Virus record (IMG/VR): IMGVR_UViG_3300005805_008748
Span: 1-25,314 of that record
DNA length: 25,314 nt
Direction: 5' to 3' (one strand)
Source of the DNA: a virus
Lineage: Duplodnaviria; Caudoviricetes
Positions 1-25,210 of the stretch are shown here, piece after piece. Within the stretch, counting starts at the first letter, position 1; each line of letters starts with the position of its first letter. The position numbers and the translations under genes were made by a program. The notes under the pieces are model-generated. The model was not told the DNA's origin. It made no database searches and worked only from the letters and a program-made list of their open reading frames with translations.

Positions 1-354
1 GTGGATTATGCGGTCAGTATGTGGTCCTACATTCAAACAAAAGATTTACCTCTATCAAATTATATTTGGCACACGCACTCAAAATTAGATGGAGGTAGAA
101 CACAATTGAAAACTGATTACACATTTGTATTCTATGTGCAAATACCTCCCAACTTAAAAGATGGAGAGGGTGACTTATTAATAAAAGATAATGATAATTC
201 CATCCATACAATAACCCCAAGAGAAGGTGACATCATTTTTTTTCCAGGATGTTTATGGCATGTTCCAACACATACACCGACAGCAACTATTGACAGAATT
301 GTTATTGCAGGAAACATCACTTCAGAATTTTTATTAAATACCTCATTGATATAA
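1..354 (+). CDS. Putative 2OG-Fe(II) oxygenase (2OG-FeII_Oxy_5/TIGR02466-like), probably 5'-truncated by the window edge
   Basis: WHTH, FVFYVQIP, GDLLI, PREGDIIFFPGCLWHVP and RIVIAGNI match the HxH...H...R double-stranded beta-helix pattern. The ORF begins at base 1, so the true start is likely upstream. Confidence 0.75.
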   Translation: MDYAVSMWSYIQTKDLPLSNYIWHTHSKLDGGRTQLKTDYTFVFYVQIPPNLKDGEGDLLIKDNDNSIHTITPREGDIIFFPGCLWHVPTHTPTATIDRIVIAGNITSEFLLNTSLI

Positions 355-359
355 TAGAT

Positions 360-836
360 ATGATAATTTACAAACCAAATTTTCTAAGTAATTCCGAATG
401 TGAATATTATATTAATTTGTTCAAATCAAATGATATAGAATTTATGGAATGGATTCAAACGTATAATAAATTTGGTGATGATGATGTACTAAAATTTTAT
501 TATAACGATTTGACAGAAAATAAATTTGAAACCGATAAATTCCCAAATTACATTTTCAAAATATTGAGAATACAAATGGTGAACGAATCGATAGACCAAT
601 GTAAAGCTCCGCACACTCATGTAAATCCTTGGTCTTTCGTTATTTTTTTAAATGAAGATTTTATAGGAGGAGAACTATCTTTTGACAATGTTGAATATAA
701 ACCAAAAACAGGGGATATGGTTTATTTTTCAGGAGAAGAAAGACATAAACTCAACAATTGTGTTGGGGATAGATATACTCTTATTGGTGGGATGCAAAAT
801 AATCCTTTAAACATTAAAACAGGAAAATTAATTTGA
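360..836 (+). CDS. 2OG-Fe(II) oxygenase, prolyl-4-hydroxylase-like fold, HxH variant
   Basis: N-terminal NFLSNSECEY; PHTH, FVIFLNEDFIGGEL, KPKTGDMVYF, distal His (ERH), RYTL. Confidence 0.8.
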   Translation: MIIYKPNFLSNSECEYYINLFKSNDIEFMEWIQTYNKFGDDDVLKFYYNDLTENKFETDKFPNYIFKILRIQMVNESIDQCKAPHTHVNPWSFVIFLNEDFIGGELSFDNVEYKPKTGDMVYFSGEERHKLNNCVGDRYTLIGGMQNNPLNIKTGKLI

Positions 837-1092
837 ATGTATAATGATTGTTTACTACGAAAATTTTTTGAACTCGTTTGAGTGTGAGTATTTTGTAAAT
901 TTATATAAAATCGATAATGACCAATATTGTGATGATGATATTTACAAATTTTATTTTATAAATTTGATTGGACGAGAATTAATGACTGAAAAATTTTCAA
1001 CCTTTATATTTAAGAAATTTAGAGTTCAAATGCTCAACGAATCGATAAATCAGTCCATAACTCCACACCGGCATGTAAATCCTTGGTCTTTC
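618..1092 (+). repeat. 21-nt exact direct repeat CATGTAAATCCTTGGTCTTTC (618-638 and 1072-1092) within the duplicated oxygenases
   Basis: Read directly from the sequence; reflects the tandem gene duplication. Confidence 0.85.
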
Positions 1093-1290
1093 ATTATTTT
1101 TCTAAATGATAATTTTACAGGAGGTGAAGTAATTTTTGACAATATAAGCTATACCCCCAAAACAGGAGATATGATTTATTTTTCAGGTGAAGAAAACCAC
1201 AAAGTTAATAATTGTATTGGAAATAGATATACATTAGTTGGATTTATGCACAATAACCCGATGAATGTAAAAAAAAATACTCTCATATGA
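844..1290 (+). CDS. 2OG-Fe(II) oxygenase, tandem paralog of 360..836
   Basis: PHRHVNPWSFIIFLNDNFTGGEV, PKTGDMIYFSGEENH, RYTL; colinear with the preceding gene. Confidence 0.8.
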   Translation: MIVYYENFLNSFECEYFVNLYKIDNDQYCDDDIYKFYFINLIGRELMTEKFSTFIFKKFRVQMLNESINQSITPHRHVNPWSFIIFLNDNFTGGEVIFDNISYTPKTGDMIYFSGEENHKVNNCIGNRYTLVGFMHNNPMNVKKNTLI

Positions 1291-2111
1291 AAAAAAAACT
1301 TCTAATTACAATGGGATGTTCTTTTACAGAGGGGGTAGGATGTTATGACCCTGAAGTTGTCTCATACAAAGTTGGTAACAAAACAAAGTATAAAAAAACC
1401 GAAGAAGTTTATTATATTAGTAAAGAAAGATTTCACAAATATTCTTGGCCCTCACATCTTCAAAAACAACTTAATTATGATATTTTAATCAACTTAGGGT
1501 TTGGCGGTTCATCGACCTCGGGTAATGTAAAAGTTTGGTTTGAAAAATATTATGATAAAAATTTTTCTGACGAGTTTGATGTTTTACTTCTTTGGTTATT
1601 ACCGTCTCCAACTAGATTTTCATTCTACAGAGATTCGACCGTGATGAATATAAATCCAGTAATGGAAAAAAACAGTTACAATGTTTATAGCTATGACATC
1701 GGAAGAGAATATTTAAAATTCATAAATAATTTGGATATGGATCCAATTCTTGAACAAATATTTTATGTCAAAATTATGGAAGAACACTGTATTTCTAAAA
1801 AATACAACTTTCTATATACTCCAATTGATTACCGTCAAAATACTTTTTTTGAAAAATTTCACAATATAAATAATATGATGAAGTTTAATCAATCTATTTT
1901 TCCAAACTTGGTAGAAAATCCAAACATGAAATCATTAGTTTGTGACCATCCAAATGAACTTGGTTATCAATTTATCTCAGATAATTTATATAACTGGATT
2001 AAAACAAATAACCCAGAATTAATTTCAGATAAGACACCGAACAGTTTTGAATCAAAATGGGATGGTTATCCAATACTTGATAACTTAAGTAAAGTAAAAT
2101 TACCTATCTGA
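1287..2111 (+). CDS. SGNH/GDSL-like hydrolase or acyltransferase
   Basis: Block I GCSFTEG, SWP, block II NLGFGGSS, C-terminal DHPNELGY; ATGA overlap with the upstream gene. Confidence 0.7.
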   Translation: MKKKLLITMGCSFTEGVGCYDPEVVSYKVGNKTKYKKTEEVYYISKERFHKYSWPSHLQKQLNYDILINLGFGGSSTSGNVKVWFEKYYDKNFSDEFDVLLLWLLPSPTRFSFYRDSTVMNINPVMEKNSYNVYSYDIGREYLKFINNLDMDPILEQIFYVKIMEEHCISKKYNFLYTPIDYRQNTFFEKFHNINNMMKFNQSIFPNLVENPNMKSLVCDHPNELGYQFISDNLYNWIKTNNPELISDKTPNSFESKWDGYPILDNLSKVKLPI

Positions 2112-2149
2112 TGATGATAAAATCAAAAACTATACTAATATTGTAATAG

Positions 2150-3199
2150 ATGAATTCCGAAATTGATTTAAAAAAATATTTTTGTGCGGTACCATTTAAA
2201 AACTTAGAGATTCACACTAATGTCTGTTTTGCATGCTGTCCATCTTGGCTTCCAAACAAAATAGAAACATCAGAAATCCCATTAAAAGAAGTTTGGAACA
2301 GTGACCCGATGATTGACATTCGAGATTCAATAATTGACGGTTCGTTTAAATACTGTGATAGAGAATTATGCCCATATTTGAGTAAACTTATCAACTTTGG
2401 TGAGACATCTGGCCCCCTACAATTAAAATCCGAATCAAGTCCTAAATCACCAGTTTTGAGTGAAGGCCCAAAAGTATTAGTAATGAATTTTGACAGGACT
2501 TGTAATTACAAATGCCCATCTTGTAGAGTAGATTTGATTGTAGAGGATAAAAAAGGGATACAACGAGTAGAAAAAACAATAGAAGAGATAGATTCTTTCT
2601 ACTCCAAAGACGTTAAGACATTGTATATAACAGGTTCAGGGGATCCATTTATATCCGTAGGCTTCAGAAACTATTTGAGAAATTTTGACCCCAAGAAATA
2701 TCCCAAACTAAAGTCAATTCACTTTCACACTAATGCTTCAATGTGGAATAAGGAAATGTGGGAGAGTATGCCAAATGTCCACAAATACGTTAAAAGTTGT
2801 GAAATTAGTATAGACGCAGCAACAAAAGATACTTACGAAAACAAAACAAGATTAGGAGGTAAATGGGATAACCTAATAGAAAATTTGAATTTCATAAATA
2901 CAATACCAAGTTTAAAACATGTCAAAACATCATTTGTAGTACAAGATTCGAACTACAGGGAAATGGAATTATTTTATAATATAATGTATTCAATTTTTGG
3001 AAAAAAGGTTGGGGTGTTTTTTGGTAAAATAACTAATTGGGGTACTTTCGGTGAGGATGAATTTAAATCGAAACAAGTGTGGGATATTTCACATCCTGAA
3101 CATGAATTATTCAAAGAGGAATTCAATAAAATTAGTAAGAACAAATATATGTTCCATAACTTACACGAATTTACTGATAAAACCAAAACTTTGATTTAA
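2150..3199 (+). CDS. Radical SAM protein with N-terminal SPASM/twitch-like Cys-rich domain
   Basis: CNYKCPSC (CxxxCxxC), GSGDPF, HTNAS, ISIDAA; N-terminal CAVPF...CFACC...EVWNS...IR...CDRELC. Confidence 0.88.
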   Translation: MNSEIDLKKYFCAVPFKNLEIHTNVCFACCPSWLPNKIETSEIPLKEVWNSDPMIDIRDSIIDGSFKYCDRELCPYLSKLINFGETSGPLQLKSESSPKSPVLSEGPKVLVMNFDRTCNYKCPSCRVDLIVEDKKGIQRVEKTIEEIDSFYSKDVKTLYITGSGDPFISVGFRNYLRNFDPKKYPKLKSIHFHTNASMWNKEMWESMPNVHKYVKSCEISIDAATKDTYENKTRLGGKWDNLIENLNFINTIPSLKHVKTSFVVQDSNYREMELFYNIMYSIFGKKVGVFFGKITNWGTFGEDEFKSKQVWDISHPEHELFKEEFNKISKNKYMFHNLHEFTDKTKTLI

Positions 3200-3759
3200 T
3201 GAAAATATTAGTTTTATCTCATACTAGATGTGGTTCTACTACCTTATGTAAATGGATTTCGAGGGAGATGAACATTGAGTTGGATGAAACTCCATATAAT
3301 AAAAAAACTTTCTACTCAATTTTCGATAAGAAAGACATAGTTAGAAAAATAGTCATAGAGGAATTCACACCACCAAACCATGTAATTCTCAAATTTGATA
3401 AAGTAATTTGTTTAACACGTGATAATAGTATCGAAACCGCCATAAGTTTTATCATGGCAAAAAAAAGTGATAAATGGCATGTCGAATATGATGTTACTAA
3501 TGATTGGATTATTGAAAATAAAAATGAAATAATACGGAGGAAAAATTGGTATGATACTATGAAGTCAACCCTGAAAAAATTTGATGTATTACAAATAAAG
3601 TATGAAAACATATATATCAGTAAAACAGATTTAAAATTATTAATTGATTATTTGAATATTGAAAACCCTCTTCATTTAGATATGTTTGATTACAATAAGA
3701 AATATAGAAAAGATACATACCAATTAGTTCATGATTTTGAAAGAAAAAATATTATTTAG
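3199..3759 (+). CDS. Sulfotransferase-like protein (Stf0-like)
   Basis: 5'-PSB-like loop SHTRCGSTTL at the N-terminus, 3'-PB-like LTRDNSIETAIS, later YENI. Confidence 0.7.
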   Translation: MKILVLSHTRCGSTTLCKWISREMNIELDETPYNKKTFYSIFDKKDIVRKIVIEEFTPPNHVILKFDKVICLTRDNSIETAISFIMAKKSDKWHVEYDVTNDWIIENKNEIIRRKNWYDTMKSTLKKFDVLQIKYENIYISKTDLKLLIDYLNIENPLHLDMFDYNKKYRKDTYQLVHDFERKNII

Positions 3760-4228
3760 TGAGAAGGAATGTCAGTCTATAATTTGGGACGAAACCAAAA
3801 ATATAAATAATCATTCCTATGTAAGTGATAGAAAATACAACTCACAACCAATAAACTATAATGAAGATACTAAATGGATATTTGAAAAACTTTCTGAGTT
3901 TTTTCAAGAAGAAACTAAATTAAAAATTACTACAATAAAAAATAAAATCCATTTTCATAAATTTGTTTCAGGAGATTGGTTTGGGAAACACAATGACGCA
4001 ATTGACAACAGAGTGTATGCCGTTGGAGTTCTACTGAATGAAAATTTTAAGGGAGGCGACTTCAAGTTATATAATCCCAACGAGTACACATTGAATAAAA
4101 CCGTTGGCAACGCTTACATATTTGAAGTAAATATAGACCATGAAATCACACCAATTTTAAGTGGTGAAAGGTATTCTTTGTTATGGTTTTTACAGAAAGA
4201 TAATTTGATTACAAAAACAATAATTTAA
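3731..4228 (+). CDS. 2OG-Fe(II) oxygenase (P4H/PKHD-like)
   Basis: Canonical HND (HxD), LLNENFKGGDF, HEITPILSGERYSL. Confidence 0.85.
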   Translation: MILKEKILFSEKECQSIIWDETKNINNHSYVSDRKYNSQPINYNEDTKWIFEKLSEFFQEETKLKITTIKNKIHFHKFVSGDWFGKHNDAIDNRVYAVGVLLNENFKGGDFKLYNPNEYTLNKTVGNAYIFEVNIDHEITPILSGERYSLLWFLQKDNLITKTII

Positions 4229-5395
4229 ATGGAAACAGATTTTTGGTTTACAGATATATTCAAAGGTTCAGGTATTCAAGAAATGCTTGAAAAGATAGAT
4301 ACAAACATCACATTCAAGAATGTTGATACTGATGTAATCGATTCAAACAAATTGAACCTATTAGTTTTTGTTTGGGAAACCAGTCCGAAGCTTCCATACA
4401 CAACATACACAACTTCAGATGAATTTATACATTTATTAAAAAAACTTCAAGATGAAAAGTTTTACTTCATGGCAGATTTTTCAAGAGAGGCTCATAACAG
4501 AGTAGACGATTTAAGTTTGTCTTTTTTAAATAAATTAAAATCAAATGAAATAGATATCAACCGATTAGTTCTTGTAAAAAATGATTCCTCAAAAATCGGT
4601 TTGCACAAAATGAAATATGAGAATTTTACATTAAACACATTTTTTTTCCCTCACTTTTTCTTATCAACATATAACCACCTCAAACAATATATTAACCCCG
4701 AAAACGAAAGAACAAAAATAGAACCAGATAAAAAATTTCTTTGTTTAAATCGGAGGGTATTTTACCACAAATATCAAATTATTGAAGAGTTGTTCAAAAG
4801 GAATTTATTAGATGAAACACGCCTCACTTGGGTAGATAATTACACCCCTCTCAAAATGATTGATTTAGATTTGGCGTATAAACTAAAATTAAATGGTCTC
4901 GAGTTCAAATCCATACAATTAGAAGGTGATGTAATGTACGGTAGTAGACTATCATATCACGACGAATTCTTGTTTACAATTAATCCAGATTGGTATTACA
5001 AGAGTAAAGTAGATATAATTACTGAAACCATGTTATATGACGAGGCGATACATATCACCGAGAAAACTTACAAATCAATTTATTTAGGATTACCGTTTGT
5101 TGTATCCGCGACTAAAGGGCACCTGAAACATTTACGAGATATGGGTTTCGAAACTTTTAATTCAATCATCAATGAAGATTATGATAATATAAATGGTAAA
5201 AATAAAGTAAAACATGTTGTAGATGCCGCTATCGAGTTATCAAATGTATATGATAGCCCTGAAGTATTAGAAATATGCAAGTTTAATAAAGAATTATATT
5301 TTGCCCCTGAATTTCGTAAGAAAATTTGTAAAGAACTTTTCTTAGACAAATTACATGAAATCGTAAAAAAATCACATCCTAATTCATTAATTTAA
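4229..5395 (+). CDS. Glycosyltransferase-like protein (ETxx...TEKT...PF...GF...YD family)
   Basis: KKFLCLNRR, IITET, ITEKTYKSI, LPFVV, LRDMGFETF, EDYD. The C-terminal half recalls the GT10-like donor-binding motif. Paralog of 13938..15128. Function is inferred. Confidence 0.5.
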   Translation: METDFWFTDIFKGSGIQEMLEKIDTNITFKNVDTDVIDSNKLNLLVFVWETSPKLPYTTYTTSDEFIHLLKKLQDEKFYFMADFSREAHNRVDDLSLSFLNKLKSNEIDINRLVLVKNDSSKIGLHKMKYENFTLNTFFFPHFFLSTYNHLKQYINPENERTKIEPDKKFLCLNRRVFYHKYQIIEELFKRNLLDETRLTWVDNYTPLKMIDLDLAYKLKLNGLEFKSIQLEGDVMYGSRLSYHDEFLFTINPDWYYKSKVDIITETMLYDEAIHITEKTYKSIYLGLPFVVSATKGHLKHLRDMGFETFNSIINEDYDNINGKNKVKHVVDAAIELSNVYDSPEVLEICKFNKELYFAPEFRKKICKELFLDKLHEIVKKSHPNSLI

Positions 5396-5399
5396 ATTT

Positions 5400-6212
5400 A
5401 TGGAATCATTAAAATACTGGTCACCTAATGAATTTGAGATTTCATCTTTAAGATACAAACTCAATGGTCAACGAAGAGTTAAAGAATTCAGGTCTCCAAC
5501 AAGTACTAAGCCTAAATCTTGCACTTACACTTATAATGATTTGGGATATAGAGGTGATTTAATCCATAAAAAAGGATTCAGAATAATGTCCATTGGATGT
5601 TCTCTTACCGAAGGTGTTGGGATTAATGACAATGAAACATGGCCCCACCAATTTACAAAAATGGTTCCGAATGGTGTGGATTTAAATTTTGGATGTGGAG
5701 GTAGAAGTAATGATTATATTAGTAGATGTCTATTAACTTACTTCGATTTAGTTAAACCTGACTTAGTTCTAATAATGTATACTTCACCAGAGAGACGGGA
5801 GGTATATACTAAAAACAATGGCGTAAAACCATTTATGCCACCTTGTTGGGGGTATTTAAGAGATACTGAAGAAGGTAAACAAATATGTAATCAGTTAATA
5901 GAGGTACAAAATGATTGTGCTGACCATCTAAATTGGTATAAAAATCATCTATTAATTAAATTATTTTTGGAGTCCAAAAAATGTAATTGGATTTGGAATG
6001 GGTCTTTCAGAATACCAAAAGAATATCAAGAAAATAATAGATTTGATGGTGACTATTTTATTCATCCATTTTTAGATTTGGGAGCAGACGAATCTCATCC
6101 AGGACCAAAACACAATAAAGAATATGTATCCAAGTTAATAACTCATATTGAAATAAATTTTCCTCATTACTTATCAAATGATAATAATTCTCACAATCAA
6201 AAATTATTATAA
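5400..6212 (+). CDS. SGNH-like hydrolase or acyltransferase, paralog 1 of 3
   Basis: YNDLGYRG, GCSLTEGVG, TWP, NFGCGGRSND, DESHPGP (DxxH). Confidence 0.72.
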   Translation: MESLKYWSPNEFEISSLRYKLNGQRRVKEFRSPTSTKPKSCTYTYNDLGYRGDLIHKKGFRIMSIGCSLTEGVGINDNETWPHQFTKMVPNGVDLNFGCGGRSNDYISRCLLTYFDLVKPDLVLIMYTSPERREVYTKNNGVKPFMPPCWGYLRDTEEGKQICNQLIEVQNDCADHLNWYKNHLLIKLFLESKKCNWIWNGSFRIPKEYQENNRFDGDYFIHPFLDLGADESHPGPKHNKEYVSKLITHIEINFPHYLSNDNNSHNQKLL

Positions 6213-6215
6213 CTT

Positions 6216-7004
6216 ATGGACTTTTTAAAATATTGGAAACCTGAAACATTTGAAATTTCTTCATACAAGTATCAACTTGAGGGAAGAAAACATAAAACCT
6301 TCACTACATCAGGTAGTGATAACACTGGATTATGTACATACACATATAATGAATTAGGATTTAGAGGTGATTCGATAAATAAAGAAGGATTCAAAGTAAT
6401 GTCAATCGGATGTTCCTTGACAGAGGGAGTTGGCGTAAATGATGATAAAACTTGGCCCCACCAATTTACTCAATTGATTCCTAATGGGGTCAACTTGAAT
6501 TTCGGATGTGGTGGTAGAAGTAATGATTACATATGCAGATCTCTAATTACCTATTATGACATTATCAATCCTGATTTAGTGTTAATTATGTATACCTCTC
6601 CACAACGACGTGAAATATACACAGAAAATGGTGGAATTGAACCATTCATTCCAACAATATCTTGGGGGTATTTAAGAGAGACTAAACAAGGAGAAAGGAT
6701 ACAAAACTTAATGATAGAATTACAAAACGAAAATCAGGATTTTATTAATTGGTATAAAAATCATCAACTTATCAAGTTGTTTTTAAAATCTAAAAATTGT
6801 AATTGGTTATGGAATGGGTCTTTCGACATACCAAAAAGTTATATAGAAATCAATAGATTTGACGGTGATTATCTCAGTCAACCATTAATCGATTATGGTG
6901 TTGAAGGATCTCATCCTGGTCCTTTACATAATAAACAGTATTCCAACAAATTACTTAATCATATACAAATTAATTTTTCTAATTATTTACCGAGTATTTC
7001 ATGA
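6216..7004 (+). CDS. SGNH-like hydrolase or acyltransferase, paralog 2 of 3
   Basis: YNELGFRG, GCSLTEGVG, NFGCGGRSND, EGSHPGP. Confidence 0.72.
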   Translation: MDFLKYWKPETFEISSYKYQLEGRKHKTFTTSGSDNTGLCTYTYNELGFRGDSINKEGFKVMSIGCSLTEGVGVNDDKTWPHQFTQLIPNGVNLNFGCGGRSNDYICRSLITYYDIINPDLVLIMYTSPQRREIYTENGGIEPFIPTISWGYLRETKQGERIQNLMIELQNENQDFINWYKNHQLIKLFLKSKNCNWLWNGSFDIPKSYIEINRFDGDYLSQPLIDYGVEGSHPGPLHNKQYSNKLLNHIQINFSNYLPSIS

Positions 7005-7612
7005 AAAGAACAAAATTTGTAATTGGATTACACACTTCTATGGAATTCTTGGAAGAAGCTAAAAATGATAAATCATTGACGGTTTTTGCATTTGAACCTA
7101 ACAAAGATTTAGTTTCCAAAATTTATAATGAATTTGAAATCCCTCAGAATTATGTAATAATTGATAAAGCAGTTTCAAATATTAATGGTAAAGTACCTTT
7201 TTATATTTGTTCCTTAGATTCATGTTCAAGCTTAATGAATTGGGGTAATGGGCCAAAGTTAGGTAAAATGAGATCAGTTGAGGTTGAATGTATAAGAATG
7301 GATAATTTTATAGAAAATTATGAGATTGAAAACATAGAATTTGTAATAATTGATACACAAGGAAATGATCTCAATGTCTTGTACGGTTTTGGAGAAAAAT
7401 TCAAAATTGTAGAAAAAGGAATATGTGAAAGTCTTTCTAAAGAAACAAATTGGAAACTTTATGAAAATCAACCTTCATTCTTGGACTTTGCTAAATTTTT
7501 TAAAAAAAATAATTATTCAATATCATGGGATTGGAATTGGGGAGGAGCGATACAATTCAACGAAATAAATATCAAATTCGAAAAATCGAAAAAATTAAAT
7601 AAGTTAATATAA
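7001..7612 (+). CDS. FkbM-family methyltransferase with degenerate motif I
   Basis: VFAFEPN, KAVSN, CSSL, VECIRMDNFI and IDTQGNDLNVL are FkbM-type motifs. Confidence 0.75.
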   Translation: MKRTKFVIGLHTSMEFLEEAKNDKSLTVFAFEPNKDLVSKIYNEFEIPQNYVIIDKAVSNINGKVPFYICSLDSCSSLMNWGNGPKLGKMRSVEVECIRMDNFIENYEIENIEFVIIDTQGNDLNVLYGFGEKFKIVEKGICESLSKETNWKLYENQPSFLDFAKFFKKNNYSISWDWNWGGAIQFNEINIKFEKSKKLNKLI

Positions 7613-7614
7613 TT

Positions 7615-8415
7615 GTGAATGCTTTAAAATTTTGGTCTCCGAACGATTTTGAATTTTCTTCTTTGAGAAGTTCACTTACAAGGAAGAAAATTAAACTTGG
7701 AACCGACGAAACTGGATTATGTACTTACACCTACAATGAATTGGGTTTTCGAGGGGACTCGATTTATAAAAAAGGTTTCAGAGTAATGTCAATTGGTTGT
7801 TCAAATACCGAGGGAGTTGGTGTAAATGATAATGAAACATGGCCTCATCAATTCAAAAAGTTAATCCTGAATAGTGTTGATATGAATTTGGGGGCTTCGG
7901 GCAGAAGTAATGATTATATATGTAGATGTCTTATAAGTTATTATGATTTGATTCAGCCTGATTTAGTTTTAATCATGTATACTTCTCCAATACGCAGAGA
8001 GTTTTACACTAAAAATATGGGTGTAAAACCATTTATACCAGAAAGTTCTTGGAACTATCTTAAAGAAACTGAAGAGGGTAGAAAAATTCAAAATAATTTG
8101 ACAGAGATTCAAAATGATAATGAAGATTTGATGAATTGGTATAAAAATCATCTAATAATAAAATTATTTTTAGAGTCTAAAAAATGTAATTGGTTATGGA
8201 ATGGTTGTTTCAATATCCCCAATGAGTATCAGGAATTCAACAGATTTGACGGTGAATATTTTATTCACCCCTTCATAGATTATGGCACAGACGGAGGTCA
8301 TCCTGGCCCTATACACAATAAAATATACAGTGAAAAACTATTCAAACATATAGAGACAAACTTTCCAAACTATTTACCTAATGAAACTCAAACTTATGAA
8401 AGTAAATTAATTTAA
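7615..8415 (+). CDS. SGNH-like hydrolase or acyltransferase, paralog 3 of 3 (GTG start)
   Basis: YNELGFRG, GCSNTEGVG, NLGASGRSND, DGGHPGP. The N-terminus aligns with the other two paralogs, supporting the GTG start. Confidence 0.72.
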   Translation: MNALKFWSPNDFEFSSLRSSLTRKKIKLGTDETGLCTYTYNELGFRGDSIYKKGFRVMSIGCSNTEGVGVNDNETWPHQFKKLILNSVDMNLGASGRSNDYICRCLISYYDLIQPDLVLIMYTSPIRREFYTKNMGVKPFIPESSWNYLKETEEGRKIQNNLTEIQNDNEDLMNWYKNHLIIKLFLESKKCNWLWNGCFNIPNEYQEFNRFDGEYFIHPFIDYGTDGGHPGPIHNKIYSEKLFKHIETNFPNYLPNETQTYESKLI

Positions 8416-8528
8416 TGATTGTAAATAAACGGATCTCTTTTTTTCAACTCTTCTATTTTCTTTTTCAATTCTTTTTTTCTTTTGTGTTCTTTAATTTTTT
8501 TAAGGAACCAATCAATAATTTTTTTCAT
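8412..8528 (-). CDS. 38-aa basic small protein MKKIIDWFLKKIKEHKRKKELKKKIEELKKRDPFIYNH, not in the ORF track
   Basis: Translated by hand. The ATG at 8528 overlaps the carbamoyltransferase TGA (ATGA), the frame fills the whole apparent gap, and its TAA overlaps the convergent TAA at 8413-8415. Confidence 0.75.
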   Translation of the reverse strand: MKKIIDWFLKKIKEHKRKKELKKKIEELKKRDPFIYNH

Positions 8529-10192
8529 AGTATTTTGTGTATAATATAATTATCTAAAACTAACAAATCCAAGTCAGTGTCCTTGAAGGTTTCTATAGCA
8601 TCACACGGAGTCAGTACCATTGTTTTATCTTTAACGTTAAAGGATGTATTCAATATAATTGGATAACCGCTCAGTTTTTCAAACTCAATTAATAAGTCGT
8701 GAATAACAGTATTTTCATAGACAGTTTGAATTCTTGAGGTTCCATCTACGTGAACAACTGCTGATAATTTATCAGCATATTCTTCTCTAACTTTAACAAT
8801 TTGATTCATGTATGGTACATCATCAACTACATAGAAAAACTCATTTTGTTTCTCTTTAATAACCATAGGAGCGAAAGGACGAAACCCTTCTCTTTTCTTA
8901 ATTAACTTATTAATTCTGTATTTCATGTCAGGAACGGTAGGATCTGCTAAAATAGACCTGTGTCCTAATGCTCTGGCTCCGAATTCGATTCTATCTCTAT
9001 ACCACCCAACTACTTTACCCTCGTGTATTTTTTTTGCAACGTAGTTTATTAATCTATTGTAATCGTAAATTTCAAAAAAGTTCAAATCTTTGATGTGACC
9101 CAAATAAGATTCAACATCGTACTTTGGTCCTAAAAAAGGATTCTTAGTTACTCTATTGTTTAATTTTTTATTTTGTACAAGGTAATGAATACAAGCACCA
9201 ACACAGGATCCAGCATCTGATGGTGCAACTGGTATCCAAATTTTATCAAAGTCAGAATTAGAAACTATTTTTCCATTTGCAGTACCATTGTATGCCGAAC
9301 CACCTCCTAAACAAAGATTATTACTACCAAGATTTTTCAAACTTTTGATAATATCGAATAAAACTTCTTCATATCTTAGTTGAACTGCTGCTGCTAAATT
9401 TTGATGTAATGTAGTAATTTCTTCTTCAGTTAATCTTGGTGAAATACCCAAATGTTCTATTAGTTTTTCGTTGAACATCAATTTTTCTGACTTATCCCAA
9501 CAAAAAACATTCATATCACAGATTAATTCACCATCTTTGAATTCTATTAAACTTCTAACTTTTTCAATGTACTCTTGAGGGTCTCCGTATGACGCCAAAC
9601 CCATTAATTTGTACTCCCCTTCATTTGGTTTGAACCCCAAATAAGAAGTCATTGTAGAATAATAAAGACCTAATGAATTAGGATATTTCCCTAAATCATG
9701 ATATTCAATTCCATCATCATCCGCTAAACCGAAAGACAACGTATCAATTTCACCAACACCATCAATAGACAAACAGATTGCCCTTTCAAAATCAGAAGTG
9801 AAAAAAGAATAATACTGATGAGCCAAATGGTGTTCGGAGTAAAATACCCTTCCCTTGAAGGGTCTCAAATGTTTATTTACATCTGAGATATTTTTCAAGA
9901 TTTTAACTAAAGATTTCAAAGAATATTTTGGTGAAGTAAAAAAGTTTTTCTTGATGTTACTCAGTACTCTTTTTAGTTTCAGATTGAGGTCTTCATAATA
10001 ACAAACCATTTCAACATCATCATAGGTTATGTTATAATGTCCGAAAATGTATTGAATCGTATTAATTGGAAATGAACTGTCATGTTTAATTCCAGTAAAT
10101 TTTTCCTCTTCGCAAGCAAAGACTAACTCCCCGTTTTTGAACAGACAGGCAGATGAATCGTGATAAAAGGATGAAATACCAAGTACGTACAT
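8525..10192 (-). CDS. O-carbamoyltransferase, NodU/CmcH/TobZ family
   Basis: HDSSA, EEEKFTGIKH, EHHLAH, DGVGE, EYKLMGLASYG, SDAGS, EFGARALGHRSILADP, KKREGFRPFAP, HVDGTSRIQTV, LNTSFN. Confidence 0.95.
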   Translation of the reverse strand: MYVLGISSFYHDSSACLFKNGELVFACEEEKFTGIKHDSSFPINTIQYIFGHYNITYDDVEMVCYYEDLNLKLKRVLSNIKKNFFTSPKYSLKSLVKILKNISDVNKHLRPFKGRVFYSEHHLAHQYYSFFTSDFERAICLSIDGVGEIDTLSFGLADDDGIEYHDLGKYPNSLGLYYSTMTSYLGFKPNEGEYKLMGLASYGDPQEYIEKVRSLIEFKDGELICDMNVFCWDKSEKLMFNEKLIEHLGISPRLTEEEITTLHQNLAAAVQLRYEEVLFDIIKSLKNLGSNNLCLGGGSAYNGTANGKIVSNSDFDKIWIPVAPSDAGSCVGACIHYLVQNKKLNNRVTKNPFLGPKYDVESYLGHIKDLNFFEIYDYNRLINYVAKKIHEGKVVGWYRDRIEFGARALGHRSILADPTVPDMKYRINKLIKKREGFRPFAPMVIKEKQNEFFYVVDDVPYMNQIVKVREEYADKLSAVVHVDGTSRIQTVYENTVIHDLLIEFEKLSGYPIILNTSFNVKDKTMVLTPCDAIETFKDTDLDLLVLDNYIIHKIL

Positions 10193-11421
10193 TATAAATT
10201 ATCTTTACCTATTATTTCGAATTTTGGACACGGTACAATAAATTTACCTCCACGTTCTAAAAATTCACGTTCTCTTTCAATAAATTCAGAAATAAAATGC
10301 CAAGGTAATACTAACATATAGTCTGGATTCATTTTTCTAACGTCATCCTCAGATAATATTGGAATATTTGTACCTATTGTTTTATATCCATATTTGTACG
10401 GGCTACGTTCAGCTATTACATCAATTAAGGTATTGTCTATTCCAAAATATTGTAATAAGGTGTTTCCCTTACTCGAAGCCCCATAACCACAAATTTTTTT
10501 CCCTTTTGCTTTTTCTTCCCTCAAAAAATTTAGTGTTTCTTTTTTCAGATCTTGTACCCTTTGATAGAAGTCCAACCATGTTTCTTCTGAGTCCAAATTT
10601 TGAGTTTTTTCCCAATTTAATATTGATTCGACTCTAACATTACAAACGTCTCGATATGGTCTAGTTGCAAATTTAGTTTCATCAGAGTTTGCTTTCTTAA
10701 TGTAAACTCTAAAACTTCCACCGTTTACATCATTAAGTTGACAATCTACAATTTTTAACCCGGCCTCAACCATTAGTTTATTTAGCGAAGAAAGTGACCA
10801 ATAATAAACATGTTCGTGAGTTATATTGTCGAACGCCAACTGTTTAATCATCAATGGAGTGTAGCTCATTTGTATAACAAATAACCCATCATCATCAAGA
10901 ACTTCATTGACATCGTTCAGAAAATCAATCGGTTCATCCAAGTCATAAAACATTGCAATACAGGTAATTACTTTAGCCTTTTTTTCTGAAAACTGAGATT
11001 TTTTATAAGATTCCAAAGTAAAATAATCTTGAATTATCTCATCAGCAACCTGTCTAGATTCAATTGTAAATGTATCATCTGTCGGATCGATTCCCAATTT
11101 TTTGACATGTTTTGGAACGTAATTGAAAAGAGTTCCGTCATTACATGCAATATCCAACCATAAATCATTTTCTTCCAATTTATGTACTTTGGAAATGTTT
11201 TCAACAATACTCATTAATTCATTTCTCATGGTTGTGTTGGTCCCACTTCTATACCAATACTTTCCAAACATTGAGTGAATAGGAGTACATTTCTCTAATC
11301 TAGCGGCCCCATATCTTTCATCAATTATTAGAGTCAAATCGTGTTTTCCCGCCCGTCCTTCTTCATCTTGTTTGATAAAGTCAGAAACATATAATTCTCC
11401 GAAACTAAATAATTTTTTCAT
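10192..11421 (-). CDS. NDP-hexose C-methyltransferase (TcaB9/NovU-like); start revised from 11490 to 11421
   Basis: YWYRSG, DIACNDGTL, FDNITHEHVYY, NGGSFR, YGASSKGNTLL, LPWHF, GGKFIVPCP. The ATG at 11421 lies 1 nt after the upstream stop. Confidence 0.88.
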   Translation of the reverse strand: MKKLFSFGELYVSDFIKQDEEGRAGKHDLTLIIDERYGAARLEKCTPIHSMFGKYWYRSGTNTTMRNELMSIVENISKVHKLEENDLWLDIACNDGTLFNYVPKHVKKLGIDPTDDTFTIESRQVADEIIQDYFTLESYKKSQFSEKKAKVITCIAMFYDLDEPIDFLNDVNEVLDDDGLFVIQMSYTPLMIKQLAFDNITHEHVYYWSLSSLNKLMVEAGLKIVDCQLNDVNGGSFRVYIKKANSDETKFATRPYRDVCNVRVESILNWEKTQNLDSEETWLDFYQRVQDLKKETLNFLREEKAKGKKICGYGASSKGNTLLQYFGIDNTLIDVIAERSPYKYGYKTIGTNIPILSEDDVRKMNPDYMLVLPWHFISEFIEREREFLERGGKFIVPCPKFEIIGKDNL

Positions 11422-11422
11422 A

Positions 11423-12157
11423 TTAAAAATCTTCACGTATAAATCCTTTATTCTGACCCCATTCCATGAATTTACCTTGAAGTGATTCATTCGAAATATC
11501 CTCGATTTTCAAATCTCTAACATTCGGTCTTACTAATTTCAAATCAAATTCGGGAAGTTGTACCACGTAGTAATCAAGACTTAGTATTGTTTTCGCAAAT
11601 TCAGTATGTATATTACCTGACATACTACTAGGAAGGGTATCAATTGTGTTAAATAGTGTTTTGAAATCCCCCATCATAAAATATTCCACTAAAAAGTAAA
11701 TTTTCTCAGAAGGTTTTCCTGTGATGTATATAGGAGTCATTCCGAAAATTATGTCTTTTTTGATTAACTTCGGATAAATTTCAGGACTATAATTATAAAA
11801 ACAATAATTGTCAGGTCTTGTCATGATTAATAAATCATATTCAACACCACTTTCTTTTATCATATTCAAAGAACTTTTCATCAAGAAAAGGTGCTTATCA
11901 TTATGATAGTATGCGTCTCCTGAAAAAACATAATCATTTACATCATAAATTTTCACTTTCGCATTAGGAATATGTTCAAGAATCATATTCTCAGAAATAT
12001 CTTCTTCAATGTGAATATTCAGTGTACTGCTTGATTGAACTGATGTTTTCCAAGTTGAAAAATATACATCACAATCTAAATCTTGCAAAAATTTCCATGA
12101 CTTGACGGCAATGTCAAATTGTCTACACATTCCTGATACCAAAACAGCGGTTTTCAT
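11423..12157 (-). CDS. Uncharacterised glycan-cluster protein, possibly glycosyltransferase-like
   Basis: MKTAVLVSGMCR, DVYFSTW and YDLLIMTRPD form a pattern I recognise from hypothetical proteins in surface-glycan clusters. Function unproven. Confidence 0.45.
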   Translation of the reverse strand: MKTAVLVSGMCRQFDIAVKSWKFLQDLDCDVYFSTWKTSVQSSSTLNIHIEEDISENMILEHIPNAKVKIYDVNDYVFSGDAYYHNDKHLFLMKSSLNMIKESGVEYDLLIMTRPDNYCFYNYSPEIYPKLIKKDIIFGMTPIYITGKPSEKIYFLVEYFMMGDFKTLFNTIDTLPSSMSGNIHTEFAKTILSLDYYVVQLPEFDLKLVRPNVRDLKIEDISNESLQGKFMEWGQNKGFIREDF

Positions 12158-12188
12158 CTTTTTTAATATAATTGAAAAACCAAAATTT

Positions 12189-13405: not shown

Positions 13406-13941
13406 TGTGTATATAACTGTGGATATTCAACTATAACGTGTATCCCCCCTTGATTGTAAGCATCTTTATACTTATCTTCAATTATTTCATGAGATAATAA
13501 GTTATGAAAAGAAATATTTTTACATAGTGACTGATATTCTAAGAAATAATCCCCTTTGTGTTGGTGACCCGGATCTATTGGATAATCAGAACCTTTACCC
13601 AATCTAACAATTATGTTTGGGTTGAATTGATTATTACTCATTAATTTAATTTTATCCAAGTGATTCAATAGTTGATTTGTTGCGCAAATTAAAAAATCCC
13701 ATCTTGGATAAAACGTGATTACAAAATCTCCAGTCATTGCCATACCTAAAGACATGCCCATTTGAGAATCTTCCATTACTGGTAATTCAATTATTTTATC
13801 TTTGGGTACATTACCTAAAGTTGTACTCATGGGGTTACCAGGATATAAAGTTTGTTGTCCAATAAAAATTGTATCAGGTTTTTCACCCAAAAATGTCATA
13901 GCATTAGTTAGTGCATCTTTGTATCTTGAATCTTGACTCAT
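13402..13941 (-). CDS. TPP-dependent enzyme beta-like subunit (pyrimidine-binding domain only)
   Basis: FIGQ, IELPVMEDSQMGMSLGMAMTG, DFLICATNQLLNH, GHQH; 179 aa with no C-terminal domain. Confidence 0.8.
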   Translation of the reverse strand: MSQDSRYKDALTNAMTFLGEKPDTIFIGQQTLYPGNPMSTTLGNVPKDKIIELPVMEDSQMGMSLGMAMTGDFVITFYPRWDFLICATNQLLNHLDKIKLMSNNQFNPNIIVRLGKGSDYPIDPGHQHKGDYFLEYQSLCKNISFHNLLSHEIIEDKYKDAYNQGGIHVIVEYPQLYTQ

Positions 13942-15128
13942 ATTAAACTTTTATAAAAATTATAATCTGTTTTATCTTTTTTCATTTCTTCAAATATTTG
14001 AACATTTCTGTCAAAACGTGATTTGTTGTGTTTGAAGAAATTGGCAATCTCTTCTTTTTTAGTACTTAATCTTAAAATTTCGTCAATTATCATCTGAAAC
14101 CTTTTCTTAGGATCTAACTCACTATCATAACTATGATTAACTACATCATCAAAAAAATCAAATCCATACCTATCTTTCATTTTTTTGATATGATTAGCAC
14201 TGGCCATTATAATAGGAATTTGTGAAAAAAATAAAGGTATAAATGACTTTTCACTCGTAAGTATAATATCATTTTTATCAAAATTAGTTTCAGTAACTAT
14301 GTTGATGTATGAATTTTTATAGGCATTATTTGAAAAGGAGGCTTCTGTATCAATTTTATTGGGTGGGTAATCCACTTGACAATCAATTTCATAAATGCTT
14401 TTCTTAATTTGAACATCAAAAAGTGTATTTATTTCCTTTTCAAATTTTAAAATTTCGTTTGGAATATATGGACAAGTTTCAAGAAAAGTCGGGTATTTAC
14501 CTGAATGTACTTCACTAATTTCATACCCTCTTAGCCAACTCCAATCGGTATTATCGAGTATATTATAATGCATCAAATACACCAATAAAGCAAAACGATG
14601 AAATTTTGGCATACGATTATATGTCATAAATAAAAAATTCCTATTTTCTTCAAATTGGTACGGAAATCTTGTCAATTCATTGGCATATGCAAATTTTCCG
14701 TTGTTGGTTGAATGTGTTATTATATTTGTATTTAATCTATTTTTAATTTCATTGTTGTTTTCATTACAATTAATAACAACTATTTTGTTCGTATCAATTC
14801 CCATATTCTTAAAAACAAAATCAAGAGCCTCAATCAAAATATCTTCGTCAGATTCAGCGTCATTACTAAGAATCAAATTGAAATTAGGATTGCTTTTTAA
14901 CAAACTCAATACGGTATCACTAAAAGGTAACTTTTTTTCTGATATAAGATATGGTACCAAATGATAACGATATTCAAAAAAGTAATAGTATTTGTTCCCA
15001 TCCTCAGGTATTTCGTTTATGTCGAAAACCTTGTAATTTTCCATACCAACATAACTACTAAAATAGTTAGTGATGCTTTCTCGAGTTACATCAACATCAT
15101 CATAGACCAAATTCAAAAAATTACCCAT
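13938..15128 (-). CDS. Glycosyltransferase-like protein, paralog of 4229..5395; start revised from 15152 to ATG 15128
   Basis: FMTYNRMPKFHR, SYINIVTET, TSEKSFIP, YGFDFFDDVVNHSYD; ATGA overlap with the downstream E1-beta gene. Confidence 0.5.
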   Translation of the reverse strand: MGNFLNLVYDDVDVTRESITNYFSSYVGMENYKVFDINEIPEDGNKYYYFFEYRYHLVPYLISEKKLPFSDTVLSLLKSNPNFNLILSNDAESDEDILIEALDFVFKNMGIDTNKIVVINCNENNNEIKNRLNTNIITHSTNNGKFAYANELTRFPYQFEENRNFLFMTYNRMPKFHRFALLVYLMHYNILDNTDWSWLRGYEISEVHSGKYPTFLETCPYIPNEILKFEKEINTLFDVQIKKSIYEIDCQVDYPPNKIDTEASFSNNAYKNSYINIVTETNFDKNDIILTSEKSFIPLFFSQIPIIMASANHIKKMKDRYGFDFFDDVVNHSYDSELDPKKRFQMIIDEILRLSTKKEEIANFFKHNKSRFDRNVQIFEEMKKDKTDYNFYKSLI

Positions 15129-15742
15129 TTTCCTGTTCCGTAGTGCGGCCACTCTTTTTTATATTTATACCAAATAATGTCTTCAGGTATTTCAGTTTTT
15201 TTCGCCCAAGTTTCAATAGTTGGTGTATTAGTTGATACTTCATTATCTTCAACAACAAATCTGATTGGTAACTTGAAATTTTTTGCATACTTATAATTTT
15301 CCATAAATGTACCTGTCTCAAACGTCATATCTCCGACAAAACACCATACAGTCTCATCAATACCTTTCATTTTGTTTGACATGGCAACACCAACCGCAAT
15401 TGGTAATATACCACCAACAATTGCAGAACTATAGAATTTTTCGTCCTTATTTACAATTGTTATGGATTTTCCTTCCAATATTTCTTTTTCTAACCAATCG
15501 GGAGATATTCCTTTGAGTAACGCATGATAATGAGACCTCCATGTCGAAAATACCCAATCATTCTTTGAGATTCTTTTGAAAATTTCAATCAGATATTTTT
15601 CATTACCACCACTCAAATGAACAGGCCCTCTTATTTTACCAGTCTCCCAACTTTCAACTATTTTATTTTCAAAATGAATAAGTTCATCTTCATTCCAATT
15701 GTGTTCCCTAACTATTGGATATTTATCTACATTTTTTATCAT
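15113..15742 (-). CDS. TPP-dependent dehydrogenase E1 alpha-like subunit (short)
   Basis: GPVHLSGGNE, STWRSHYHAL, SAIVGG, TPP motif GDMTFETG...VVEDN. Confidence 0.85.
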   Translation of the reverse strand: MIKNVDKYPIVREHNWNEDELIHFENKIVESWETGKIRGPVHLSGGNEKYLIEIFKRISKNDWVFSTWRSHYHALLKGISPDWLEKEILEGKSITIVNKDEKFYSSAIVGGILPIAVGVAMSNKMKGIDETVWCFVGDMTFETGTFMENYKYAKNFKLPIRFVVEDNEVSTNTPTIETWAKKTEIPEDIIWYKYKKEWPHYGTGKWVIF

Positions 15743-15745
15743 AAC

Positions 15746-16784: not shown

Positions 16785-16785
16785 A

Positions 16786-17793: not shown

Positions 17794-18747
17794 TTAAATT
17801 TTAGTTTTATACCATTCAATTGTTTCTTTTATTCCTTCTCCAAAAGTATATGTTGGCTCAAATCCCAATTCATTTTTGATTCGTTCAATACTGACTGCTC
17901 TGAAAGGTATTGTTGTAGGTTTAGAATCATCCCAAATAACTTCAGGGTTAAGTTTACTAACTTCAATTATTGTGTCTACGATTTTACCAATAGATATTCC
18001 TCCACCGTATCCCAAGTTATATGGCCTTATAGACTCTCCTTTTTCAAGAATCAACAACCCACCTTTGACAACATCTTTAACATAAAGAAAATCTCTAACA
18101 ACATCAGGTGAACCCCAAACTACGAATGGATTTTCACCACTTAATAATCTTTTAATCAACGCTGGAACAACGTGGCAAGTTTTCAAATCGAAGTTGTCAT
18201 AAGGCCCGAATATTGCGGTACCTCTTGCGATACAAATTTCCATATCCCCTAACCGTGATACGTGTTCCATCAATTTTTCTCTGTATCTCCTCATCCATCC
18301 ATATCCATAGTAAGACTTGTATGGCTCATCCACCCAAAACTCATCTTCAGTCAATGGTCTCCTAATATCAGGATATCCTGTGGAGCTATTAAGGTCCAAA
18401 AATCGTTTCACCTTTGACTTATACGATGCTTCTAACACATTTCCAATTATTTGGATTTGTTTCAATGAAATTTGTACATCAGTTGGTACTGTGGATGGAT
18501 GAGCGATTTGCCCCGCACAATGAATTACATAGTCACAGCCTTCAACAAGTCTGAAACAATCTTCTAATTTTGTGAGATCTATATTTTCATGGACTACAAT
18601 ACTCTCATGATTGTATTGTAGTGGAGATTTATGAGTGTGAGTGATAACTTTTGCGCCTTGTTTAACAAGTTCAATTAAATAATGGGTACCAATGAACCCA
18701 GATCCCCCCGTAACAACAACCTTTTTATTCTTAAAAAATTCTTTCAT
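17794..18747 (-). CDS. GDP-sugar epimerase/reductase (Fcl/ColC-like extended SDR)
   Basis: TGGSGFIG, FGPYDNF, HVVPALI, VWGSPDVVRDFLYVKD, WDDSKP. Confidence 0.8.
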   Translation of the reverse strand: MKEFFKNKKVVVTGGSGFIGTHYLIELVKQGAKVITHTHKSPLQYNHESIVVHENIDLTKLEDCFRLVEGCDYVIHCAGQIAHPSTVPTDVQISLKQIQIIGNVLEASYKSKVKRFLDLNSSTGYPDIRRPLTEDEFWVDEPYKSYYGYGWMRRYREKLMEHVSRLGDMEICIARGTAIFGPYDNFDLKTCHVVPALIKRLLSGENPFVVWGSPDVVRDFLYVKDVVKGGLLILEKGESIRPYNLGYGGGISIGKIVDTIIEVSKLNPEVIWDDSKPTTIPFRAVSIERIKNELGFEPTYTFGEGIKETIEWYKTKI

Positions 18748-19415
18748 AGTAATTTATTTGTTTTCATATATCGTTTAAATGAAATTTCACGTTTTCCAAT
18801 ACCGATTGCGTCATCCAAAAACAAATCACATGGGTCATTGTAAATATAATTTGATAATGAACTATCATATAATAATTCATTTTTTACAAAAATTAAGTTT
18901 CCCGTCATACAAACTAACGAATAATTCTTATTTTTAGCTAAATTAACAGTAGATTTGAAACTACTACTGAAAATTTTACCATCATAAACATGTTCAGTTT
19001 GACAATCAAAAAACGGATTTATTTCTATAACAACAACCTTAGGTTTATAGTCCTTGAGACTATCCCAAACATGATAGTCGTTCCCGTCAATATCAATACT
19101 CAATATATCAAAGTCTAATACCAAATCAGTTTTTTTTAGAACATTATCAAGCCGAGTTTCTCCAATTGTAGTTATTTCTTCATGAATAATTAAACCCCCT
19201 TCTAACTGTGGTAGATGAAAAGGATTTTTGTCAATATAAACTCCATACCAACCATAGTTTTGAACTAAATTATATGTATTGGAGAAAATAAGATGATTCA
19301 TCCCTACCTCACAACACTGTTTGTTATTCAACTTTAACTCATTAATTAAAAATTGTAAGACACCATCTTCTCCGTACTGAGAATATATTGAATATGAATT
19401 ATCAATTACTTTCAA
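18744..19415 (-). CDS. FkbM/Methyltransf_21-like methyltransferase
   Basis: YSQYGEDGVL, EVG, SNT, GWYG, LSIDIDGNDYHVW, PKVVVIEIN, GNLIFV. Confidence 0.75.
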   Translation of the reverse strand: MKVIDNSYSIYSQYGEDGVLQFLINELKLNNKQCCEVGMNHLIFSNTYNLVQNYGWYGVYIDKNPFHLPQLEGGLIIHEEITTIGETRLDNVLKKTDLVLDFDILSIDIDGNDYHVWDSLKDYKPKVVVIEINPFFDCQTEHVYDGKIFSSSFKSTVNLAKNKNYSLVCMTGNLIFVKNELLYDSSLSNYIYNDPCDLFLDDAIGIGKREISFKRYMKTNKLL

Positions 19416-21563: not shown

Positions 21564-21580
21564 AATAGTAAAAATAAAAT

Positions 21581-22315: not shown

Positions 22316-22329
22316 TCTTAATAGTTAAA

Positions 22330-23097: not shown

Positions 23098-23107
23098 TCT
23101 TTAATTC

Positions 23108-25208: not shown

Positions 25209-25210
25209 AA

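Follow-up and report, generated by a model that had tools for sequence, protein, structure and literature searches.

A shared Leu/Ile C-terminal tail on mostly unrelated tailoring enzymes of an uncultured phage: a candidate docking tag linked to a predicted ligase-plus-intein-like gene

The DNA analysed here (the window, 25,314 nt, virus record IMGVR_UViG_3300005805_008748) derives from an uncultured freshwater phage. It opens with a plus-strand cassette of mostly unrelated enzymes sharing a C-terminal tail of about Lys-Thr-Leu-Ile, and continues with a minus-strand operon. The relevant genes are as follows.

1..354, plus strand: 5'-truncated 2OG-Fe(II) oxygenase-like gene (Pfam), cut by the contig start (full-length relative in genome G001, 184 aa); tail NTSLI
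360..836, plus strand: 2OG-Fe(II) oxygenase (Pfam); tail TGKLI
844..1290, plus strand: 2OG-Fe(II) oxygenase (Pfam); tail KNTLI
1287..2111, plus strand: SGNH-like by motif; ends VKLPI, no strict tail
2150..3199, plus strand: radical SAM protein (Pfam), CxxxCxxC at 118; tail TKTLI
3199..3759, plus strand: sulfotransferase-like; tail RKNII
3731..4228, plus strand: 2OG-Fe(II) oxygenase (Pfam); tail TKTII
4229..5395, plus strand: 388-aa protein; tail PNSLI
5400..6212, plus strand: SGNH/GDSL-like (Pfam); tail NQKLL
6216..7004, plus strand: SGNH-like paralogue by motif; ends LPSIS, no tail
7001..7612, plus strand: FkbM methyltransferase (Pfam); tail LNKLI
7615..8415, plus strand: SGNH-like, weak DUF6071, last cassette gene, convergent with the next operon; tail ESKLI
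8525..10192, minus strand: carbamoyltransferase; ends IHKIL, a possible tail (5 of 20 family members are tailed)
13938..15152, minus strand: 404-aa protein of the sugar operon, no Pfam match; tail YKSLI
18744..19415, minus strand: FkbM-like methyltransferase of the sugar operon; tail TNKLL

No terminator and no promoter excess were found at the junction between the two operons (8300-8650). The fold labels proposed in an earlier note on this DNA, made from its letters, fared unevenly. Pfam supports FkbM (E 1e-12), radical SAM (4e-7) and the 2OG oxygenases (2e-5 to 3e-7), and more weakly the sulfotransferase (0.0018) and one GDSL/SGNH protein (0.0037). The genes starting at 1287, 4229 and 6216 have no Pfam match, and the "GT-like" label of 4229..5395 finds no support in Pfam or PHROG.

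The central claim of that note was a shared x-[LI]-[LI]-stop tail, and all twelve plus-strand termini read as it gave them. Ten end in [LI][LI] (seven LI, two II, one LL), the exceptions being VKLPI and LPSIS, while the internal rate of [LI][LI] in the window is 219/8231 (2.7%; binomial p = 1e-14). When stop codons in all six frames are considered, 118 of 2164 (5.5%) directly follow such a pair. The minus-strand operon has three tailed ends in 20 (p = 0.015). The note is also right about the varied Leu and Ile codons and stops, the convergence of the genes at 8415 and the overlapping genes at 3731-3759. Away from the cassette such ends occur at 3-6%, and orthologues of the cassette genes keep the tail; no refuting outcome set out in the note was encountered. 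Exceptions among orthologues are the tail of 5400..6212, which reads KLF in three of them, and the end of 6216..7004, which is variable. In the radical SAM protein, I349 is invariant in 27 aligned relatives, all of which were chosen for having the tail.

Related large T4-like phages supplied larger numbers. In these phages the tailed genes cluster around one particular gene, here called the anchor, which is outside our window and in close relatives lies just upstream of the matching stretch. Among distinct C-termini within five genes of the anchor, 464 of 553 are tailed, compared with 54 of 832 in distant genes; these counts, being drawn from related phages, are not independent. Consensus of the tail is about K-x-K-[TSK]-L-I at the free C-terminus. 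Lysine makes up 49, 30, 28 and 56% of positions -7 to -4, Thr (35%) and Ser (27%) together 62% of position -3 (the remainder being mostly K, N, Y and E), Leu and Ile 82 and 18% of position -2, and Ile and Leu 75 and 25% of the last position. Val, Phe and Met are rare. Placement is strictly terminal, with 464 motifs at the very end and only 5, 1 and 3 at one to three residues inward.

Nucleotide-level features argue for a signal in the protein. Leu codons at -2 (TTA 263, TTG 56, CTA 42, CTT 12, CTC 4, CTG 3) are near background use, tailed genes use each of the six Leu and each of the three stop codons, and synonymous changes separate orthologues within the tail, for example CTC/CTT in 844..1290. 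ATA is over-represented as the last codon (260 of 348 Ile). Genes with an ATGA overlap are tailed in 154 of 173 cases inside the cassette and in 10 of 72 outside; genes without a nearby ATG in 75 of 101 and 16 of 375, respectively. Counts stratified by ATGA overlap thus indicate that the tail is not due to gene overlap. FkbM homologues with 63-66% identity stop at the domain end and do not carry the LNKLI extension; the FkbM tree requires three tail changes, in which gain and loss are not distinguishable. The proposal of the earlier note that the signal acts at the protein level is borne out by background codon use, strict terminal placement, synonymous changes and tail-less close homologues. 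It is thus well supported by sequence comparison that the tail represents a protein-level, terminal and modular tag on tailoring enzymes.

Linkage to the anchor is also seen within single genomes. In the complete genome G006, 8 of 14 ends within 6 kb of the anchor are tailed versus 13 of 281 elsewhere, and in G007 10 of 15 versus 13 of 218. The cassette occupies differing genomic settings in G001, G002 and G006, with the anchor present each time. In two named relatives in which no anchor match was found, such ends number 6 among 172 and 6 among 211, never more than two per ten genes, compared with seven to nine per ten genes in G006, G007 and G015. Since these relatives contain only 0 and 1 homologues of the enzymes, they serve as a control of background only. 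Six loci with radical SAM genes of 35-38% identity show 0-1 tails in 15-20 ORFs; the anchor was not found in five of their contigs, which are fragments. Some anchors have few or no strict tails nearby (L235 and L281, 0/10; L233, L234 and L243, 1/10). Of 28 enzyme homologues at distances above 10 kb from the anchor, 9 are tailed, versus 32 of 773 (4.1%) for other genes, so proximity does not explain all tails. Two contigs estimated as 18% and 6% complete (L409 and L408) carry an untailed SGNH homologue and no anchor match; a few neighbours there nonetheless end in LI. A halogenase scan gave only two loci and thus no control set.

In the source phage the anchor presumably lies upstream of the window, as suggested by synteny with relatives and by single contigs from two runs containing about 90% of the window's words. 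The anchor has no match in GTDB genome contigs or named phages, nor has the radical SAM protein any in named phages, so that no cultured model or host is available.

A small Cys-containing protein is encoded within four genes of 125 of 176 anchors, directly adjacent in 105. Near anchors, this protein bears a relaxed tail in 118 of 126 cases and a strict one in 89 of 126. In five minimal modules (L545, L560, L445, L539 and L546) it is the only or nearly the only tailed neighbour. The anchor protein itself is tailed in 0 of 67 cases, and its tiny helical partner of 50 aa never.

The anchor protein is predicted to consist of a glutathionylspermidine-synthetase/YgiC-like ATP-grasp part followed by an intein-like Hint domain, with a hypervariable piece at the C-terminus. 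In the structure model (pLDDT 91.6), residues 1-281 resemble GspS, E. coli YgiC/YjfC and eukaryotic glutathione synthetase (Z 9.4-10.2, rmsd 4.2-4.6 over 206-217 residues), with which the anchor shares a circularly permuted ATP-grasp fold and the D...ExN metal motif near the N-terminus. An ESM Atlas search returned unnamed clusters and mixed ATP-grasp families. Residues D9, E22, K171 and R108 do not vary among the 133 anchors compared, and N24 and R230 are conserved in 132. Unlike these enzymes, the anchor starts eight residues before the Asp, is fused to Hint and has no Arg two residues before the Asp. Residue 1 of the model aligns with GspS residue 310, which places residue 7 at Arg316, a register taken from the ends of the alignment range only. 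Arg316 is the carboxylate-activating arginine of the family; a literature search on GspS R316 found nothing. Residue 7 is Gly in 85 and Ser in 48 of 133 anchors, and a fourth anchor clade has Gly (48) or Ala (16) at the same position.

Residues 285-459 match a BIL Hint domain (PDB 2lwy; Z 19.7, rmsd 1.5 over 138 residues). As in BIL Hint domains (2lwy, 6tmm), the fold and the closing His-Asn are retained (H in 130, N in 132 of 133). By contrast, the first Hint has no Cys among the common residues 288-293 (288 is K/G/H, 289 is L/T/I/V), thus lacking the opening Cys/Ser nucleophile of a splicing intein, and it sits between a ligase fold and the hypervariable C-terminal piece. A second Hint protein of G006 (P0294) was considered as another anchor and rejected; with its opening Cys present, it resembles an ordinary Hint protein. 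Behind the His-Asn, three anchor clades carry hypervariable Cys-rich peptides, no such peptide being found in the poly-Hint clade, to which the closest relatives of the window belong. In some anchors (5 of 8 tested, two above cut-off) the C-terminus is an S74-like fibre chaperone. Tails accompany four anchor clades that differ in the C-terminal piece, which points to the shared ATP-grasp/Hint part.

The reading we favour, and regard as quite possible though short of probable, is that the tail, which is separable from the enzyme domain, is under selection as an appended peptide label and serves as a docking tag read by the anchor module. Tailed, otherwise unrelated tailoring enzymes would dock on the anchor protein via this label. 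The Hint domain may cut off the variable C-terminal piece, which would be further Hint domains or a Cys/Trp/Tyr/Pro-rich peptide with or without the S74-like chaperone. The released piece, or a substrate on the virion surface that is attached to it, could then be decorated by the docked enzymes (oxygenases, halogenases, sulfo- and methyltransferases, radical SAM enzymes). Recruitment of a new enzyme would take the gain of about 4-10 residues at its C-terminus. The enzymes' tails might be copies of that of the small Cys protein next to the anchor, which would serve as a permanent ligand. Of the common partner supposed in the earlier note, linkage to one anchor gene, unseen by its reader, is what stands; binding is conjectural. 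Linkage is not binding, since an operon whose products share one common fate, such as degradation or packaging, would give the identical pattern. Also against docking are the anchors with few or no tails nearby, the tailed homologues far from the anchor and, for the presumed substrate, the lack of a Cys-rich peptide in the window's own anchor clade.

Alternatively, the tail could be a ligase substrate, the ATP-grasp part activating the C-terminal carboxylate of the tagged enzyme and thereby tethering it covalently to an amine, which could be that of the Hint-released piece, of a virion lysine or of a polyamine. We consider this unlikely. The closest solved folds do ligate peptide carboxylates, YgiC being reported as a peptide-spermidine ligase in a review (PMC11762307). 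The invariant residues listed above and the requirement for a free end are also consistent with ligation. Against this, the position of the carboxylate-activating Arg is Gly or Ser in all 133 anchors, which favours docking, although R108 or R230 might stand in for it. Nor is there an evident reason for bulk ligation of catalytic enzymes.

Similarly unlikely is that a different phage protein, in the head, in the tail or at the assembly site, reads the tail so that the enzymes are packaged, injected or localised, the anchor being merely a co-transcribed client. The cassette adjoins very large, presumably tail-fibre-type genes in several loci (2033 and 2556 aa), and the chaperone-like anchor ends and the tailed distant homologues fit this proposal. 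However, the anchor stays alongside in all three differing settings, it and its tiny partner are never tailed, and no PDZ, TPR or tail-specific-protease family was found in the 138 of the 224 G006 proteins of 130-1600 aa that were scanned (Pfam, E 1e-5).

About as unlikely is a signal for degradation or remodelling by a host AAA+ or tail-specific protease (ClpX of MuA type, Lon, FtsH or Tsp) that limits enzyme lifetime. Such a signal needs no phage receptor, and the shift in Leu at -2 between clades (3 of 16 in one poly-Hint clade versus 226 of 291) could reflect different hosts. The ClpX signal of MuA, RRKKAI (PMC8138137), is likewise portable, with a basic run and two aliphatic residues at the free C-terminus. 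Yet the tail marks a single gene module, with many enzyme families around one phage gene, whereas a host signal would be open to any phage gene. Other genes of the same genomes remain at the 4.1% given above and anchor-less relatives at about 3%, and in minimal modules the tail is still present on the small Cys protein next to the anchor. Finally, a by-product of AT-rich DNA (GC 27-32%), of overlapping stops and starts or of a DNA/RNA motif where genes meet, to which ATA over-use and the tailed ATGA-overlapping genes outside the cassette might point, is refuted by the overlap-stratified counts and codon use and is hardly tenable.

Plug-in recruitment by a short motif is familiar from dockerin-cohesin, PTS1-Pex5, EEVD-TPR and PDZ systems, while the tail has only about four residues and no known receptor domain was found. 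Class I PDZ ligands read S/T-x-hydrophobic; of the 464 tails, 62% have Ser or Thr two residues before the last one, and most others K, N, Y or E. In RiPP clusters, tailoring enzymes read a leader, and a hypervariable Cys-rich core lies beside them, a role that the Cys-rich peptides of three anchor clades, but not the poly-Hint clade, might play here. We tentatively propose, as a possible but doubtful extension, that in large aquatic T4-like phages any enzyme can be recruited, through a C-terminal handle of four residues, to a ligase scaffold that cuts itself and would release, decorate and attach a hypervariable peptide to the virion surface. The recognition label would then sit on the enzymes, not on the substrate as in RiPP clusters.

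Phage arrays of 2OG oxygenases, halogenases and methyl-, sulfo- and carbamoyltransferases have been described before, as tandem dioxygenase/halogenase clusters of cyanophages Syn9 (PMC2938197) and S-SSM6a (PMC7824862), and such clusters were called unprecedented (PMC2938197). In the passages compared, neither a common C-terminal tail nor an ATP-grasp-Hint gene is mentioned. No description of the tail-plus-anchor module was found in a literature search that covered few subscription papers and no supplements. The shared tail around a predicted ligase-plus-intein-like gene thus appears to be new as an arrangement, found in no paper.

Were the tail a degradation signal, it would be a further form of a known kind of signal. 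The module parts are small and expressible, and the tail reader should be findable by peptide pull-downs; either a portable pair of tag and scaffold or a ligase acting on protein C-termini would be useful as a tool. If docking is true, enzyme assembly would rest on an unusually small device, a four-residue handle common to over a dozen unrelated enzyme families, and this would provide a testable entry to the long-standing substrate question for the oxygenase, halogenase and sulfotransferase arrays of large aquatic phages.

ORFs were called by a custom script with a minimum of 80-90 aa, some false ORFs being admitted. The 25.3-kb record is viral, with word matches in lake and freshwater metagenomes. 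An earlier note proposed that the last residues of most of 12 plus-strand proteins form a candidate docking or sorting tag; all 12 C-termini were confirmed exactly as written. Ten of them end in [LI][LI], compared with 219 of 8231 internal dipeptides in the window (p = 1e-14); 3 of 20 minus-strand genes do so. Both gene groups are listed here.

1..8415 (+), tailed cassette: four 2OG-Fe(II) oxygenase genes (Pfam, two just below cut-off); one radical SAM and one FkbM gene (supported by Pfam); a sulfotransferase and one SGNH protein (weak Pfam support); three genes lacking a Pfam match
8525-25214 (-), operon of nucleotide-sugar enzymes and carbamoyltransferase (Pfam): GDP-mannose dehydratase, two epimerases, DegT aminotransferase, C-methyltransferase, split transketolase-like pair, cytidylyltransferase, carbamoyltransferase, SGNH-like genes
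11423-12157 (-), gene ending IREDF, with orthologues ending DKSLI, DRNLI or NRNLI

The minus-strand operon is likely a surface-glycan island, convergent with the cassette. Judging by the orthologues, the gene at 11423-12157 appears to have lost its tail in the window.

The radical SAM protein used as query retrieved 48 viral loci. Tail runs occur in all 42 with identity of at least 52%, and the six at 35-38% show 0-1 tails per 15-20 ORFs. Gp23, portal and sheath proteins mark the complete relative G006 (288,673 bp) as a T4-like myophage; its capsid shares 52-55% identity with an uncultured phage, Flavobacterium phage immuto and Microcystis phage Mel-JY01. A Shine-Dalgarno-like word was found in 0/11 window genes, which would presumably fit Bacteroidota.

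In the closest relatives, the cassette extends upstream into a gene of 912 aa, a predicted ATP-grasp/Hint fusion (the anchor); in other phages, an anchor homologue of 490-500 aa lies mid-cassette. The anchor gene is absent from the window sequence. Two metagenome runs contain about 0.9 of the window's words, and in them a single 7.6-kb contig spans anchor core and cassette up to the radical SAM gene; words shared at the level of the run link these contigs to the window, and they may come from the same strain. Among distinct C-termini within five genes of an anchor, 464/553 (84%) are tailed, against 54/832 of distant genes; the anchor's own C-terminus is tailed in 0/67. Counts for individual genomes are listed below.

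Tailed genes near the anchor versus elsewhere in relative genomes
G006: 8/14 vs 13/281
G007: 10/15 vs 13/218
G001: 5/11 vs 16/96
G002: 8/13 vs 10/98
G003: 6/12 vs 6/101

Among the tailed families are several 2OG families, SET, tryptophan halogenase, radical SAM, SGNH, methyltransferases and unnamed ones.

The tail is a signal at peptide level. The 464 tailed genes near the anchor are K-rich at -7..-4, with T/S/K at -3, then L82/I18 and I75/L25; the dipeptide stands at the very C-terminus 464 times and one, two or three residues inward 5, 1 and 3 times. Leu codons at -2 match background use, all three stop codons occur, and tails of orthologues are separated by synonymous changes. An ATA excess at the last codon is the expected effect of ATGA overlaps. 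Overlapping genes of this kind are tailed in 154/173 cases in the cassette vs 10/72 outside, and genes without nearby ATG in 75/101 vs 16/375. FkbM homologues (63-66% identity) stop at the last strand (HFKKI, HFKKM, EFKRI); tailed FkbM proteins are 3-7 residues longer than untailed homologues, a length difference compatible with gain or loss.

The AlphaFold2 anchor model (133 sequences; pLDDT 91.6, pTM 0.87) matches glutathione synthetase-like proteins, YgiC and GspS over residues 1-281 (Z 9.4-10.2) and BIL Hint domains over 285-459 (Z 19.7). YgiC/YjfC were reportedly studied by Pederick et al. in 2023. D9, E22, R108 and K171 are invariant; N24, R230, H458 and N459 nearly so. The first Hint domain lacks the opening Cys and therefore, by general Hint chemistry, only cleavage after Asn would be expected. 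An intact Hint domain, with opening Cys and closing His-Asn, was seen in the tail-gene region of G006 (L153:2853-4109). The region after the Hint His-Asn varies by anchor clade.

Types of C-terminal piece
Hypervariable Cys/Trp/Tyr/Pro-rich peptides: 115 distinct among anchor proteins collected
Longer, Cys-rich, with S74-like chaperone: 5/8 tested, 2 above cut-off
1-3 further Hint domains: type of the window's closest relatives

The hypervariable Cys-rich peptides (L058:11642-13117, L065:14273-15772 and relatives), many with a P-K-L/I end, look like self-released products. In a fourth clade (P0195, P0201, P0209, P0178, P0259), the terminal Peptidase_S74-like fibre chaperone hints at a trimeric virion-surface product.

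Other genes accompany the anchor. A helical protein of 42-53 aa lies 3' of 82/132 representative anchors and was not found directly after P0003-clade anchors. It is basic (L001:5972-6121 and relatives), and its conserved Arg might, speculatively, complete the ligase site. A 90-100-aa Cys protein occurs within four genes of 125/176 anchors, with a relaxed tail in 118/126, and is the sole or almost the sole tailed neighbour in minimal modules. Two untailed genes often found 5' of the cassette (L058:16227-17038 and relatives) are, as we read their motifs, APS-kinase-like and nucleotidyltransferase-like; they could supply sulfate donor. The one checked gave no Pfam match.

We tentatively favour docking of the enzymes on the anchor by a putative reader. 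Tails accompany all four clades (168/425 neighbours in the fourth, both sides counted), and any reader within the anchor would thus lie in the shared ATP-grasp/Hint core. Against docking, some anchors are nearly devoid of strict tails in their surroundings, with 0/10 near the L235 anchor and 0/10 near L281, though two neighbours of the latter end TLF; anchor-distant homologues are tailed in 9/28, and the tail counts are drawn from related phages. Anchor-less controls are tailed in 6/172 and 6/211, but do not contain these enzymes. L281 and L321 are two anchors on one phage contig, and TLF in place of TLI near L281 is possibly a second specificity.

That the tail is instead a substrate of the anchor ligase seems unlikely. 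The anchor position equivalent to GspS Arg316, whose role in the ligase we presume, is Gly, Ser or Ala throughout, in a register taken from alignment range ends; moreover, HxD...H and CxxxCxxC motifs are intact among enzymes checked, two 2OG genes having HxH in place of HxD. Docking is ranked above ligation for these two reasons. Reading of the tail by a receptor in the virion or at an assembly site is about as probable as ligation, and so is a ClpX-type degron. In one clade, Leu at -2 falls to 3/16 (shifting to Ile/Val/Ala) vs 226/291, as would be expected if the tail had co-evolved either with a reader in the phage or with another host.

PDZ, PTS1, EEVD, dockerin, RiPP-leader and BIL chemistry offer further comparisons. 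Comparison literature includes PMC7824862, PMC2938197, PMC8138137, PMC11762307 and PMC12506659. No description of tail or anchor was found among the openly available papers searched. The C-terminal label is real and selected, and both it and the ligase-Hint module to which it is tied are apparently undescribed.
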